This document shows positions 7,455 to 40,400 of a DNA stretch of 46,875 bases, piece after piece (the stretch's first letter is position 1; every line of letters begins with the position of its first letter). Both the position numbers and the translations under genes were made by a program. Below the pieces are notes generated by a model that saw only the letters and a program-made list of their open reading frames with translations, made no database searches and was not told where the DNA came from. This DNA comes from an uncultured Armatimonadia bacterium (lineage in GTDB: Bacteria > Armatimonadota > Zipacnadia > Zipacnadales > CAYWBK01), in NCBI GenBank assembly GCA_964455745.1, contig CAYWBK010000002.1, positions 1-46,875 on the forward strand, given 5' to 3'.

Positions 7455-7503
7455 GACCTCCCTTGCCTGGGCCCATCCGGGTTGCCACCCTCCCCGACGA
7501 CAT
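7455..7503 (+). promoter_or_regulatory. Island leader motif, copy 1 (upstream of the tyrosine recombinase)
   Basis: Sequence is GACCTCCCTTGCCTGGGCCCATCCGGGTTGCCACCCTCCCCGACGACAT. TTGCCN and TGCCAC are separated by 14 nt, as in most other copies. Confidence 0.5.
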
Positions 7504-7518
7504 CTGCAGGTGACCTGT

Positions 7519-7546
7519 GGGGAACATCACACCCATGATGTTCCCC
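7519..7546. promoter_or_regulatory. Perfect 11-bp-arm palindrome GGGGAACATCA-N6-TGATGTTCCCC
   Basis: Arms are 7519-7529 and 7536-7546. It lies between the leader motif and the recombinase start at 7638. Confidence 0.4.
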
Positions 7547-7637
7547 AGGTTCCGCCGGAGCCGTATGTCATCTCCGGCGGCGGTCGTCGCAAGCCCCCGA
7601 ATCGGGCAAACGACATGTGAGGGAAGGGTGAGACGAG

Positions 7638-8585
7638 ATGGAACTGACCCCATTCGTGACGAAGCTGGTGGCGGCACTCGAGGCCGACGACCTAGCTCCG
7701 GGGACGATCACGAGGACCAGAATCGACGCTGCCCAGTTCGAGGAGTTCCTGCGTGGTTCGACCGGCAGCGACCTCGACCCGAACGACGTACAGGTCGCCA
7801 CCATCGACCTGCAGGAGTTCCGCGGCTGGCTCCAGAGGAGGGACATGACCCCAGGCACGATTCAGAGGAAGTTCGCCAGCATCCGCAAGGCGTTACTCCT
7901 GCTGGCTCCCGAGGTCGCACTCAAGTTGAAGTGGCCCAAGCTGCCGACGCAGCAACTGCAGGCCCCCAGCGAGCTGGGACGCAACCTCCGCAACGCGATC
8001 CTGAGGGCAGCGGAGTCCCTGTCGCCCCGCGACGAGTGCATCATCAAGATGCTGCTCTTCACGGGGGCACGGGCATCGACGCTGGCAGCGGCTCGACTGT
8101 CGAACGTCCGCCTCGGCGAACGGAGCGGGGAGATCACCTACCATGCCTCCTCCAACAAGTCGAATCGTGAGTACACCGTGCCCCTCAACTCGGAGTGCCG
8201 TGCCGCCATCCGTCGCTACATTGCGGTGCGTCCGGAGGTCGAACACGACGCCCTGCTGTGCAGCGAACGCTTTCCCTTCGACCCCGTCACCCGCGGCGTC
8301 GTGTGGACGGTCTGGCACGAGCGGATGCGTGCCCTGCTGCCCAAGCAGATGCAGGATCGCGTCCACGGGCCACATCAAGCTCGCCACGACCTCTGCCGTC
8401 GCCTCACTTCAGGTGAAATCGGGCCGGACGGAATCCGGCGTCCGCCCGTGGCGATCTCGGACGCCGCCGCCATCATGGGGCATAGCGATCCCCGTGTGAC
8501 CGCCTCCGTCTACTCGAGGCCAGCACCGGAGGACCTCAAACGGGCACTGGACGAGCTGGTCGGGGACGAGGGCGAGGAGGTGTGA
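7638..8585 (+). CDS. Tyrosine recombinase (XerC/D-phage integrase family)
   Basis: N-terminal SAM-like core-binding region. Catalytic-type motifs TGARAS, HQARHD, MGHSD and SVYS (R...HxxR...H...Y). Confidence 0.7.
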   Translation: MELTPFVTKLVAALEADDLAPGTITRTRIDAAQFEEFLRGSTGSDLDPNDVQVATIDLQEFRGWLQRRDMTPGTIQRKFASIRKALLLLAPEVALKLKWPKLPTQQLQAPSELGRNLRNAILRAAESLSPRDECIIKMLLFTGARASTLAAARLSNVRLGERSGEITYHASSNKSNREYTVPLNSECRAAIRRYIAVRPEVEHDALLCSERFPFDPVTRGVVWTVWHERMRALLPKQMQDRVHGPHQARHDLCRRLTSGEIGPDGIRRPPVAISDAAAIMGHSDPRVTASVYSRPAPEDLKRALDELVGDEGEEV

Positions 8586-8914
8586 GGTCCGGGTGCAGGA
8601 GCTGTCGGTGAGGCAACATCCGTCTCGTCATGCGGCGGCCTCCTGGTGACATGCCCGTCGGCGTCCATACAGGCGGCCAGACTGAGCAGGTCATCCGCTG
8701 GCATCGGCGAAGGAATATTCTTGGGTCCACTATAGCGGACGCCCTTTGTACGAGACGGAAGGCTCGTCGTGCACGCCCCGATGCCGACCGCCGAGTCCGC
8801 AGGGCTCGCCCCGTCTGCTTGGCGGAGCTAGAGGGTCTGGAGGCCGAGTGTGCGTAAGACCGTCACATAGTCCCGACGGACGACCGGGCAGGGACTCCGA
8901 TGGCGTGAGTCCGC

Positions 8915-9310
8915 GTGACGCTGGAGGGCAGAACTCCCATGACGCTCCACCCGAAGCGACGCTTCGCCGATCGAGCCAGAGCCTATGCCCGCTACCGCCC
9001 CACCTACCCGTCCGCGGTGGTCGGGACCCTCCGCCGAGACCGTGGGTTGACGCCCGAACACGGGGTTGCCGACGTCGGTTCCGGCACCGGTCTGCTCAGC
9101 CGCTTGCTCCTGGACAGCGGCAACACGGTCCAGGGCGTCGAACCGCACAAGGCGATGCGGGCGGAGGCGGTGCACTTGTCGGGGTACTCACCGTCGGTGA
9201 TCGTTGCGGGAGCTCCGAGAGCACAGACCGTGGTCGGGTCCGACCTGATTGGGACACCCCAGTCCCTTCGCCTGTGTCCGCAGCGTCGCACTCCGGCATG
9301 TCCGGCATAG
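8915..9310 (+). pseudogene. 5' fragment of a class I SAM-dependent methyltransferase (truncated)
   Basis: RFADRARAYARYRPTYP then motif I VADVGSGTGLLS then GVEPHKAMRAEA. The ORF then degenerates and stops after roughly half the length of a typical member, directly before the next gene. Confidence 0.4.
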
Positions 9311-9347
9311 GGGTGTCCACCGAACGCGTCCTCGACTGAGGTGCTCC

Positions 9348-38261: not shown

Positions 38262-38706
38262 CATCGAGGTCCCCGATGGCCGTCATCTCGACCATCGTGG
38301 CCTTCCGACACGAAGAGCGGTTCTGACCTGCCCTGCCGCGAGAGCTCGGAGTGCCACCATGCCCCGAGACGACATGAGCAGGAACCACACCATGTCGCAG
38401 ACGCACATCGTCGGCCGCAGTGGCGGCCGGGAGGAGGAATGTGCAACGACGACCGACACGGCCGTGCGAACGATCAAGCTCGAGGGAGTCGATGGCCGCC
38501 ATCTCGACCGTCCTGCCCTCCCGACACGAATGGCCATCCCGACCTGCCTTGCCCCGAGAAGTCGGAGTGCCACCATGCCCCGAGACGACATGAGGCCGAA
38601 CGGGACCATGTCGCAGACGCACATCATCGGCCGCATCTGCGGCCATCAGGAGGAATGCTCAATGGCAACCGACACGGCCGTGCAGACGATCAACATCGAC
38701 GGAATC
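38262..38706 (+). repeat. 216-nt tandem direct repeat (~2 copies) containing leader-motif copies 7 and 8
   Basis: Units start at 38275 and 38491 (GATGGCCGYCATCTCGACC...). Motif copies are at 38325-38375 and 38541-38591. Each unit ends with AGGAGGAATG and the first ~14 codons of the downstream gene. Confidence 0.85.
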
Positions 38707-39015
38707 GAGTACGAGCTCAGGCCACCCACAGACGACAGCTACGCCGACCTCGATGCTTGGCTGGAGCACGACCTCGTGGTGGAGTACGCCGACGAAGATC
38801 AGCCGGACGACGCCGAGAGCATCCGCACGTATGGGATCGAGTGCGTCCCCGGCATCGTCGACGCCGAGGGCCGGACGGTCGGGTTCGTGTGCCCTGATTG
38901 TCAAGTGCCCGTGCTGCTCCACCACGCCGACGTCTACCAGGACCGTTACCGGGGATGCCCCCAGTTCGGCTGCGACGTGGTCGTCTACTGCGGCGATGTG
39001 CTGCCGAAGGGGTGA
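38662..39015 (+). CDS. Small acidic protein with a C-terminal Cys cluster (zinc-ribbon-like)
   Basis: AGGAGG lies 9 nt upstream of ATG 38662. Sequence runs MATDTAVQTINIDGIEYEL...FVCPDCQ...GCPQFGCDVVVYCG. The frame stays open upstream, so ATGs at 38359 and 38575 are alternative starts. Confidence 0.5.
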   Translation: MATDTAVQTINIDGIEYELRPPTDDSYADLDAWLEHDLVVEYADEDQPDDAESIRTYGIECVPGIVDAEGRTVGFVCPDCQVPVLLHHADVYQDRYRGCPQFGCDVVVYCGDVLPKG

Positions 39016-39026
39016 TGGGGCGGTGG

Positions 39027-39060
39027 GGCGTGCCCCGGGCAGTGAGGCTCGGGGCACGCC
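39027..39060 (+). terminator. Hairpin GGCGTGCCCCG-N12-CGGGGCACGCC 3' of the small gene
   Basis: 11-nt perfect arms 12 nt after the stop at 39015. Confidence 0.45.
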
Positions 39061-39277
39061 GATGTGGGGTCTCACGATTCGCCACGGTGACGCCGCAGAG
39101 AAGGAAGTTGGGTTCGCCATGTCGGATTCGCTTTCCCCTCACCGTCGATCATCGTACTATCGAATCGAGATCGGCCGCTCCCAGAAACATGTGGACCGAG
39201 GCGGAGCGAGAGCACAGCACAGGTCACGCCCGGCACCGCCTGAGCGGGCCGGAAGATGACAGAGGAGATGATCGAAG

Positions 39278-40051
39278 ATGCCAAAGAGCCAGAATCGGGG
39301 CGAGATGATGTCCCGGCCTGGAAGTGACCGCCGCAACGCAGGCTACATCCACTTCCGCAGCATCGCCGATGACTGCGTCCAGCAACTGCTGTCCGAGGGC
39401 GAGCACGAATCGGTGGTGGGTCGGCTGGCCACCGTCCACTGGTTGGATGATGAACGGGCACCGGTGGTCTGCCCGAGCCTGGGTATTCTCCGCAGGATGT
39501 ACTGCGAGGTGTGCACCACCCAGCCGGACGGTGGTGCTCGCACATACACGGGGGATGTGCCCGGCGTCAGGTACGACGGTGACATACCCCAGCGATTCCC
39601 AGACTGGCGTGTCCAGGCGTTGATCGACCTCGGCTACGACGCCGAGTGCATCGCCAGCGGAACGGCTGATCGCTACGTGATCGTGGCCGTCGAGCCACAC
39701 GGGTCTGACGTGATCGAGCAGCTCGGAGAGAGCATTGCGGTGGTCAGGATACATGCCGGAGGTGGGATCAGCGTCGTAACACCGGGGGATGCCGTAGAGC
39801 TGTATGGACACAGGGAAGACGAGGAGCCTTGGGGCGATCAGGAGTTCTGGGAGGCCGTGACCGGTCCCCGGTCGGCCACGGCTCCCGATGGCATCGAAGG
39901 GCTCATCGTCCGACTCGAGGACCGAGGCTGGACCGACGTGGAGGTGCTGGACTGGCACAACGCGGTGACCGGGCAGGACCACCTCTGGGTGTTCGCTCTG
40001 CCTCCCCTCAAGGACGACGACACCGATGAGCCCGAGCTGGATCAGGACTAG
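39278..40051 (+). CDS. Acidic hypothetical protein
   Basis: GAGGAG lies 9 nt upstream of ATG 39278. The translation is protein-like throughout. No recognisable domain. Confidence 0.45.
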   Translation: MPKSQNRGEMMSRPGSDRRNAGYIHFRSIADDCVQQLLSEGEHESVVGRLATVHWLDDERAPVVCPSLGILRRMYCEVCTTQPDGGARTYTGDVPGVRYDGDIPQRFPDWRVQALIDLGYDAECIASGTADRYVIVAVEPHGSDVIEQLGESIAVVRIHAGGGISVVTPGDAVELYGHREDEEPWGDQEFWEAVTGPRSATAPDGIEGLIVRLEDRGWTDVEVLDWHNAVTGQDHLWVFALPPLKDDDTDEPELDQD

Positions 40052-40366
40052 GCGGTGGCCGACAGGGCGATGCTCGTCGGTGCGGGCGTTGCGGTCTGGA
40101 AGCCGCCGACCATCCGGCATGTAGCTTCAGTGGCCCCTCGGTCCGCGGCGTCGTAGAATGAAGACAGGCTCCACGCAATCAGGCTCGTGGAGCCTCGGAT
40201 GGCGAAGCGGTACGGCGATGAACGGACGGATGGAAGAGATGGTGAAGGTGACAGTGCACGAGAGCTGGGTCAGGGCAGCCGCTTCCATGCCCCATTCGCA
40301 ACGTCACCAGTGGTGCCGTCCAGGGCTCGGCCGGATGCTGGAAGCCCCGCCAGTCAGACTCATGCC

Positions 40367-40400
40367 GACCTGCCTTGCCTGGGTCGGGGCGTATTGCCAT
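40367..40400 (+). promoter_or_regulatory. Island leader motif, copy 9 (upstream of the small ORF / serine recombinase pair)
   Basis: GACCTGCCTTGCCTGGGTCGGGGCGTATTGCCAT. The first half is identical to other copies, the spacing is 14 nt, and the second half is degenerate (TGCCAT). Confidence 0.45.

Follow-up and report, generated by a model that had tools for sequence, protein, structure and literature searches.

A two-block motif upstream of the core genes of an integrated island in an uncultured Armatimonadia bacterium: a candidate promoter class

The locus and its nine motif copies

The window analysed here is the whole stretch of 46,875 nucleotides (nt) from the forward strand (positions 1 to 46,875) of contig CAYWBK010000002.1, which belongs to the assembly GCA_964455745.1 of an uncultured Armatimonadia bacterium. 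It has 64% G+C, matches the metagenome contig ENA ERZ27250145 k141_710576, and ends in a minus-strand rRNA operon consisting of 16S, tRNA-Ile, tRNA-Ala, 23S, 5S, and tRNA-Asn. Left of the operon lies an island with defence cargo on the minus strand and core genes on the plus strand. The plus-strand genes encode a tyrosine integrase (7638-8585; Pfam), a conserved protein of 571 amino acids (aa), which is the first core gene (29157-30872), a 1548-aa ParB-N6/N4-C5 methyltransferase (31617-36263; Pfam and gene caller), a D5/P4-type primase (36450-37967; Pfam), a 117-aa Zn-ribbon protein (38662-39015), a 257-aa protein (39278-40051), and a 67-aa open reading frame (ORF; 40458-40661) that overlaps a large serine recombinase ORF (40561-42246; Pfam). 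The subject of this study is a two-block motif, cc-GACCTGCCTTGCC-N13/14-(GA)GTGCCACC, which is present in exactly nine copies in the window, all on the plus strand. The copies stand 5' of the integrase, multi-methyltransferase, primase, and Zn-ribbon genes, and of the unit formed by the 67-aa ORF and the serine recombinase gene. An earlier note on this DNA had reported nine plus-strand copies; all of them were found again, and only those listed at 36279 and 36381 move by one base, to the G of GACCTG at 36278 and the G of GAGCTC at 36380. Its count of the distance from TTGCCN to TGCCAC, 14 nt in seven copies and 13 nt in the two copies at 38 kb, is correct.

Copy 1 (ctGACCTCCCTTGCC-N14-GTTGCCACC; 7453..7489 by matrix) stands 5' of the tyrosine integrase gene (ATG 7638), in an intergenic region between divergent genes, and is followed by a leader of about 140 nt with two perfect hairpins (7518-7547 and 7552-7580). 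A GTG-started ORF (7517-8170) with a good Shine-Dalgarno sequence (SD; AGGTGA) begins 28 nt past this copy, in another frame than the integrase ORF 7638-8585; it could encode a leader peptide, mark an alternative start combined with a frameshift, or be due to chance. Copies 2 (31300..31336), 3 (31438..31474), and 4 (31561..31597) form three tandem leader modules within one 745-bp non-coding region 5' of the multi-methyltransferase gene, each consisting of the motif, 6 nt, GGAGGTG, and a start codon, and repeated at 138 and then 123 nt. Copies 2 and 3 are followed 6 nt later by GGAGGTGG, with an ATG at 31494 after copy 3, while copy 4 is followed 6 nt later by GGAGGTGA and the real start of the gene, ATG 31617. 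Copy 5 (36276..36312) lies 15 nt beyond the methyltransferase stop; its orthologue in the related contig L231 sits before an 82-aa gene that is absent from the window. Copy 6 (36378..36414), the most diverged (GAGCTCCCTTGGC...), precedes the primase gene (SD GAGGTGA, ATG 36450).

Copies 7 (38323..38358) and 8 (38539..38574) have the 13-nt spacer. The former belongs to the first unit of a 216-bp tandem duplication, which comprises the leader and the 5' end of the Zn-ribbon gene; the latter stands 5' of the 117-aa gene itself (ATG 38662), and its leader holds an inverted repeat, CGACATG...CATGTCG. Copy 9 (...TATTGCCATC; 40365..40401) is located 5' of the 67-aa ORF (SD AGGAGGTGA), whose overlap with the start of the large serine recombinase gene is arranged alike in L231.

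All copies are non-coding, which for those at 31.3-31.6 and 38.3-38.5 kb is the most likely assignment. The copies at 31.3-31.6 and 38.5 kb had been described as lying in an open frame, but these frames cross duplicated leaders, and the true starts are ATG 31617 (gene caller; SD GGAGGTGA) and ATG 38662 (SD GGAGGAA). The periods of the leader duplications, 138, 123, 102, and 216 nt (31302-31617, 36278-36450, and 38325-38662), are all multiples of three; therefore, long ORFs traverse the duplicated leaders and inflate the apparent N-termini, as in ORF 31074-36263 and in the gene caller's ORF 38359-39015. Since periods in the relatives are mixed (8/12 multiples of three overall), this regularity may be due to chance.

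Neither of the two position matrices described below finds a copy before the plus-strand genes 29157 and 39278 or before any minus-strand cargo gene, the latter as had been stated for full copies. A half-site proposed at the start of gene 29157 (29143-29156) did not hold up: it is a mere likeness of 8-9 nt without the left block and is flagged by neither matrix. The orthologous position in relatives reads ...ggtgaaccATG, and the likeness is probably due to chance. The region upstream of the 571-aa gene (29090-29156; L231 1-111; L241 8950-9013) lacks the main motif and holds another stretch conserved in relatives, GGGGAAC(C)T..CAC(C)GAC(C)AGCA(G)CCC..GGTGAACC-ATG.

Matrix scores and consensus

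When the whole window was scanned with a two-block position matrix allowing a gap of 22-25 nt, the nine copies scored 27.4-36.9 bits and the next best site 14.6 bits. The minus strand of the window has no site of 14 bits or more, and shuffled windows yield 0-2 sites at or above that value. To rule out circularity, a second matrix was made solely from eight copies of an unrelated contig, L186. It recovered the same nine sites at 21-35 bits, the best other sites in the window being 13.9 bits on the plus strand and 12.4 bits on the minus strand. In the reverse test, a matrix built from the window alone picks nine sense-strand copies in L246/L248, the longer or parallel versions of L186. The 10-mer CTGCCTTGCC, with at most one mismatch, gives 12 matches against 4.3 +/- 1.8 in shuffles, and the true copies are on the plus strand only. 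The motif is real, statistically solid, and biologically meaningful.

In an alignment of 21 copies of the same type from five loci, the consensus has a left block, C-n-GACCTGCCTTGCC, with about 15 informative bases and, past 13-14 bases without sequence conservation, a right block, a-n-n-GCCA(C/T)C. The blocks measure 15 nt on the left and 8 nt on the right. By hand anchoring, CCTTG and CCACC stand 24 nt apart in 17/21 copies and 23 nt apart in 4/21; unlike hand anchoring, the matrix scan puts the copy at 36278 at 24 nt.

Transcription units and accessory leader elements

Terminator-like hairpins follow several of the genes that lie upstream of motif copies. A perfect GC-rich hairpin of 13 bp without a T run (30956..30983, plus strand) divides the 571-aa gene from the methyltransferase unit, and a perfect 14-bp hairpin (37997..38027, plus strand), 30 nt past the primase stop, divides the primase from the Zn-ribbon unit. 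A perfect 10-bp hairpin (40166..40195, plus strand) is found after gene 39278-40051 and upstream of copy 9, and a similar inverted repeat, read by eye, follows the Zn-ribbon gene at about 39025-39060. Because hairpins come after the upstream genes, the motif-bearing genes appear to be separate transcription units. Between hairpin and ribosome-binding site, the motif is the sole conserved element, and a consensus scan of 28.9-42.3 kb detected no sigma-70-type promoter on the plus strand. The gene-end hairpins and those in the integrase leader are all perfect, 9-14 bp, GC-rich, and without a T run, and a simple terminator scan misses them; this suggests that they are T-tract-independent terminators in the host.

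An additional upstream site, palindrome-like with the form (A)TTGGYGACGnTGCCA(G), occurs 76-78 nt before the motif anchor, and the intervening sequence is unconserved. In relatives, it is present at this distance in 5/5 copies of L231 (1988, 6286, 6735, 8578, and 14626), 3/3 of L241 (10891, 11071, and 11352), and 3/4 of L243 (7302, 7493, and 11701). In the window, this arrangement is kept before copy 9 only (TGGTGACGTTGCGA; 40296..40309, minus strand; 77 nt before the anchor). Two other sites in the window stand farther away: TGGTGACATTGCCA (38221..38234, minus strand), 110 nt before copy 7, and the exact TGGTGACGGTGCCA (31041..31054, plus strand), which precedes copy 2 by 267 nt within the long gap ahead of the methyltransferase gene. 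The palindrome is probably the site of a dimeric regulator, and the fixed phasing of 76-78 nt over unconserved sequence argues for proteins on DNA, with helical phasing.

A second leader motif, ACGACATG, recurs downstream or just upstream of the main motif, often paired in direct or inverted orientation (CGACATG...CATGTCG). The extension CCCGA(GA)CGACAT, noticed previously in three of the copies, is real and is part of this separate motif. Its sites in the window are 7497-7504, 7610-7617, 31421-31428 (minus), 38369-38376 with 38391-38398 (minus), and 38585-38592 with 38607-38614 (minus), and it is found as well in leaders of L231, L233, L234, L241, and L243. Four of the five exact matches in the window fall in motif-bearing intergenic regions, and with at most one mismatch there are 63 matches against 40.6 +/- 6.2 expected.

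Related islands and an unrelated array

Contigs of related islands are syntenic with the window: a 571/573-aa gene, one or more ParB-methyltransferases, primase, small genes, and a serine or tyrosine recombinase, with defence cargo upstream. They hold variants of both blocks at the orthologous positions, namely before the methyltransferase, the primase, the Zn-ribbon gene, and the recombinase unit. The variants are gacACCCCTTGG-N14-AACCCCACC in L231, CCCCCTTG(T/C)CC-N12-GTGAACCCACC in L233/L234, GACCTGCCTTCG...GCCCA(C/T)C in L235/L245, GTGACCTCCCTTGCC...TCGCCACC in L237, and CCTTGT(C/G)..CCCA(C/T)C in L241/L243. Sense-strand matches to the skeleton cluster ahead of gene starts in these relatives; the few minus-strand matches, which lack the flanking bases, look like chance.

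The window-type variant has a second carrier, L186 (Ga0181520_10010907), with longer or parallel versions in L246, L247, and L248. This array has Shedu-like and AAA cargo upstream of it and consists of an Xre-type helix-turn-helix (HTH) gene followed by about 12 small genes without a known function. Nine or ten of its intergenic gaps carry the motif on the sense strand, before nearly every gene, and several copies begin at the stop codon of the preceding gene and end 6-20 nt before GGAGGTG. No protein common to the window and L186/L246 was found by tblastx and blastp at E<0.01. The sole protein link between the arrays and the primase islands is a 53-residue C-terminal segment, 53% identical (E 3e-13), between L246 14966-15493 and L234 220-501 (minus). 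L248 corresponds to ENA ERZ27250145 k141_926576 and so comes from the same metagenome sample as the window contig. L249, a close relative of the array from another sample whose first protein is 83% identical, has both blocks altered in 4/4 copies, which stand ahead of four genes (CCTCCCAC-N11-13-GCGTCACC).

Overall, the two blocks change together and fast between related elements, and one variant is common to unrelated elements in one community. Concerted change of the blocks and a shared variant fit a trans-acting factor that co-evolves with its sites, and it is a possibility that one element supplies the factor for the other.

Scans of other sequences and tests of RNA structure

The earlier note had proposed a dedicated regulon signal of the island at the DNA level. 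A dedicated DNA signal is still the best-supported reading; the motif is not private to the island, since it is found in the L186-type array and in related islands. In an exact-pattern scan of viral contigs, only 3 + 2 chance matches were obtained. The species-representative genomes gave 107 single matches over all phyla, none of them with the flanking bases or a second copy, and the metagenome contigs gave at least 118 matches, of which, among the matches listed, only L186 is real, with 6-10 copies. The motif was in no sampled genome a genome-wide dispersed repeat, the host genome being outside those scanned. Searches of the literature for the motif strings returned only unrelated primers, and Rfam gave no motif match at the gathering threshold or at E<=5, just rRNA, tRNA, and chance matches; this agrees with the view that it is not a described element.

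A check by covariation had been suggested to separate an RNA structure from a DNA site. RNAalifold predicted 0 base pairs on 20 copies, which favours a DNA site. The minimum free energies (MFE) of the 45-nt cores and of their 85-nt extensions equal those of shuffles, with z-scores scattered about 0. A spacer hairpin is possible in some copies (CCGA..TCGG, CCCG..CGGG); it is paired in 51% of cells versus 54% in shuffles. Both blocks are C-rich and cannot pair with one another. No reverse-complement (antisense) copy is present in the window or in L246.

Comparison with described systems

Some phages and satellites place one sequence before many of their genes and thereby define one temporal class, as with the T7-type, T4 middle/late, P2/P4 late (Ogr/Delta), and lambda CII-dependent pRE/pI/paQ promoters. 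Such sets are read by an element-encoded polymerase, sigma factor, or activator, and the P2/P4 promoters are common to helper and satellite. None of these promoters is known to have sequence similarity to the motif, which has two blocks whereas the T7-type promoter is a contiguous 23 bp.

Among bacterial promoters, the spacer is of the sigma-70 kind: 17 bp in 17/21 same-type copies, 16 bp in 4, and 15-17 bp in the variants. Set against the -35 hexamer TTGACA, TTGCCn agrees in TTG and C4 in most copies, which is 4/6 at best; two copies read CTGCC, and L235/L245 have TTCG. A housekeeping sigma-70 promoter was rejected, as the -10 would be CACCnn in place of TATAAT, with an invariant A at position 2 and T at position 6 in only about a quarter of the copies. 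Sigma-54 (TGGCAC-N5-TTGC) was likewise rejected: on the plus strand the order is reversed, on the minus strand TGGCAC is about 14 nt from GGCAA, and the variants lack TGGCAC. The nearest promoter class in sequence is sigma-32 (RpoH), with the consensus CTTGAAA-N11/16-CCCCAT (PMC545781). The likeness consists of CTTG at -35, a C-rich -10 with C(-12) and A(-11), and the spacer range, and is seen in CTTGCCn-N14-TGCCAC, CTTGGCC-N14-CCCCAC (L231), and CTTGTCC-N12-ACCCAC (L233/L234). In contrast to sigma-32 promoters, AAA is replaced by C/T-C-C, the T after CCCCA by C, and the left block extends about 9 nt farther upstream. A sigma-32 promoter was rejected, since AAA and the final T are absent from all copies and the L249 variant is without CTTG. 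Moreover, the consensus shifts between close elements, a change that a conserved host sigma factor would not explain.

In placement and behaviour, the nearest described systems are the start-associated sequences and their extended counterparts (SAS/ESAS) that cluster K mycobacteriophages carry (Pope et al. 2011, PMC3203893), whose function was still untested in 2025 (PMC12699233), and the cluster A stoperators. The SAS is GGGATAGGAGCCC, 13 bp long and located at the ribosome-binding site, upstream of which 17-bp inverted repeats may or may not be present (PMC3203893). As with the motif, SAS/ESAS are short asymmetric repeats with about 10-20 copies per element, nearly all in one orientation, just upstream of some gene starts and at times overlapping the preceding stop codon. 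They are absent from the host genome at large; for the motif, the scans cover sampled genomes, the host's not among them. Their group-specific consensus suggests a co-evolving factor, and roles as promoter, operator, and in translation have been debated. Membership of the motif in SAS/ESAS was rejected, as placement alone is alike: the sequence is unrelated and there is no inverted repeat. The SAS is 13 bp with a Shine-Dalgarno core and the ESAS a pair of 17-bp inverted repeats, whereas the motif is a two-block sequence of 35-45 bp upstream of the SD. The host phylum is also different, and the carrier is an integrated island rather than a phage.

Stoperators resemble the motif in occurring as numerous asymmetric copies that point in the direction of transcription within short intergenic regions, and in a consensus that tracks the specificity of an element-encoded protein; 9/9 copies in the window and 9-10 in L186/L246 are likewise intergenic and on the sense strand. 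The motif is not counted among the stoperators: these are single repressor sites of about 13 bp that stop elongation, whereas the motif has two blocks at promoter spacing, and no repressor was found among the island proteins. The sites in the window follow terminator-like hairpins, while stoperators lie inside one long operon. Finally, attC sites were discarded, as the blocks show no inverted symmetry and no stable fold, and as recombinases the island has just a tyrosine integrase of generic type and a large serine enzyme. Compared with iterons and single-strand initiation (ssi) sites, the copies are dispersed before five gene units, with three in tandem in 745 bp, and form no hairpin.

A possible promoter class and its rivals

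With moderate confidence, we propose that the motif is the core of a dedicated promoter class, which would be read by an alternative sigma factor or an activator as the candidate factor. Its action can be tentatively described as follows. Separate units would be driven for the integrase, the anti-restriction-type methyltransferase, the primase, the Zn-ribbon protein, and the small ORF with the serine recombinase. The left block (cc-GACCTGCC-TTGCC) would supply a -35-like TTGCC with about nine more specificity bases upstream, and the right block (GTGCCACC), 17 bp downstream (16 bp in two or three copies), would supply an extended-minus-10-like TG, C(-12), and the invariant A(-11). Transcription is predicted to start at a purine 8-9 nt past CCACC, which would leave 5' untranslated regions (UTRs) of about 10-130 nt. 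The reader may be RNA polymerase carrying a sigma factor other than the housekeeping one, or assisted by an activator on the long left block. The housekeeping sigma factor by itself would not suffice, since T(-7) is missing and the left block greatly exceeds the length of a -35 hexamer. The specificity of the factor may co-evolve with the motif, given that the two blocks shift jointly from one related element to another. For some subfamilies, the phased palindrome upstream would be where a dimeric regulator acts.

If TTGCCn is taken as -35, the right block's one invariant base, the A of CCACC, comes to lie at -11, and the TG of GTGCC at the extended -10. At the predicted +1, nine bases past CCACC, 20/42 copies from all subfamilies have an A, and positions 8-9 are mostly purine; in 8 copies the Shine-Dalgarno GGAGG follows at a constant 6 nt, which confounds this signal in part. 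Several points weigh against a promoter. In these 8 copies, GGAGGTG lies just 6 nt past CCACC, so that the transcript would start inside GGAGG with an unusually short leader. No sigma factor, RNA polymerase, Ogr/Delta, CII, or HTH regulator was found among the island core genes (Pfam on about 40 ORFs; PHROGs). We know of no -10 element that resembles the right block, and the nearest, CCCCAT of sigma-32, differs. In the L186 array, the motif fills very short gaps without terminators, where an operator or an RNA signal in a co-transcribed operon fits equally well. The 15-nt left block holds more information than ordinary promoters need, and the start sites are predicted from sequence rather than from transcripts.

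The main rival reading takes the motif as an asymmetric operator that works in the manner of the L5 mycobacteriophage stoperators: a repressor encoded by the element would silence the core genes by occluding promoters or blocking elongating RNA polymerase, and the motif variants would define immunity groups. This appears rather unlikely to us, although many copies in one orientation in the short, terminator-free gaps between co-directional genes of L186/L246 would suit it, as would the concerted, element-specific change of both blocks, which is expected when the specificity of a repressor shifts. An Xre-type HTH gene does stand upstream of the L186 array, and the extra palindromic site at a fixed distance in relatives could permit looping; the island core genes, however, include no HTH repressor gene. 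A site of 35-45 bp with two blocks at -35/-10 spacing and an unconserved spacer also differs from the single 13-bp stoperator (PMC3203893). Furthermore, the copies in the window follow terminator-like hairpins, so that each unit would need another promoter, and none of the sigma-70 type is detectable. Similarly, an unstructured C-rich signal in the 5' UTR beside the ribosome-binding site, bound by a protein or nuclease for translation initiation or polycistronic processing and placed as the SAS are, would account for the strict strand specificity, for GGAGGTG at a fixed 6 nt past CCACC in 8 copies, and for whole intergenic gaps of the operon-like array being filled by the motif. In L186, the motif at its start shares bases with the stop codons of the genes before it, as reported for SAS, and CCACC is able to pair with GGTGG/GGTG of the Shine-Dalgarno sequence. 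We regard such a signal as unlikely: this pairing amounts to just 4-5 bp, in over half of the copies the SD lies anywhere from 16 to about 85 nt away, and neither conserved secondary structure nor covariation, nor any antisense copy in the window or L246, is seen. A palindrome at a fixed 77 bp across unconserved sequence is hard to explain in RNA, and copies behind hairpins and in the divergent region would each need an unseen upstream promoter.

A strand-specific site for replication, transfer, or recombination is very improbable. It might be an ssi for the D5/P4 primase on a single-stranded intermediate, an iteron, or an attC-type cassette site, in keeping with an element that encodes a primase-helicase and three recombinases and has all copies on one strand, three of them in tandem in the 745-bp non-coding region; L186 is also superficially cassette-like, with one element between each pair of genes. 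Yet the placement follows gene starts and ribosome-binding sites at fixed distances, the inverted core sites of attC are lacking, the copies are not clustered like iterons, and no stable ssi-like single-strand hairpin was obtained, as judged by RNA folding parameters only. As for a structured cis-regulatory RNA, such as a riboswitch, a ribozyme, or a protein-binding hairpin, conserved blocks around a variable segment and the small hairpin possible in some copies would be its signs. It is hardly credible, being largely refuted by RNAalifold, the spacer-hairpin test, the MFE z-scores, the null result with Rfam, and the C-rich blocks.

The motif is best described as an undescribed regulatory motif specific to an element family, most likely a promoter, and of a familiar kind, as private codes of promoters or operators are frequent in mobile elements. 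Should the motif be a promoter class, it would define the regulon of uncharacterised tRNA-integrated islands with primase and defence genes in a poorly studied phylum, and integration/excision, replication, and self-methylation would be switched on together, while the defence cargo would not. What stands out is the C-rich -10 without T(-7), the concerted evolution of the blocks, and a variant common to two unrelated elements in one sample, which hints at regulatory cross-talk between mobile elements. In a more far-reaching scheme, which we consider distinctly doubtful, one factor would be shared by the two unrelated elements, resident in one bacterial population, in a helper/satellite-type relationship, and the integrase, recombinase, primase, and protective methyltransferase of the island would be on only when the L186/L246/L248 array or its factor is active. 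The C-rich -10 (CCACC) without T(-7) would then be a new kind of promoter, implying an undescribed sigma-like or polymerase-recruiting protein among the unannotated genes. In practice, the motif offers a 45-bp handle by which such elements may be found in metagenomes and sorted into specificity groups, and with which the reading factor may be fished for.

Other features of the island

The minus-strand cargo between 11 and 29 kb includes two type I restriction-modification systems, with HsdM at 19241-20728 and 27450-29303, HsdS at 21799-23322 and 26207-27469, and HsdR at 23319-26255. Also on the minus strand are genes for a DUF4917/SIR2-like protein (20735-21922), a WD40-TIR protein (15983-18037), and two Mrr-type nucleases (6316-7347 and 14009-15004). 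The left end of the island is undefined, as AAA_13, helicase-like, and Mrr genes run on to the start of the window.

The 571-aa protein had no sequence match in Pfam, PHROG, or PDB. Its AlphaFold model is weak (pLDDT 62.5) and gave no fold match below E=0.1, with only faint hints of a radical-SAM/TIM-barrel-like fold. It has 14 homologues with 42-74% identity, all from metagenomes or metagenome-assembled genomes (MAGs), one of them from an NCBI MAG labelled Armatimonadota. For the primase, no relative above 27% identity was found in annotated plasmids or phages (PLSDB, INPHARED), and its 8 homologues (46-69% identity) are again all from metagenomes or MAGs. At the right end, the serine recombinase ORF ends within the 3' part of the tRNA-Asn gene (42205-42279, minus strand), a gene that comes directly after the 5S rRNA gene, and the island is probably integrated at tRNA-Asn beside the rRNA operon.

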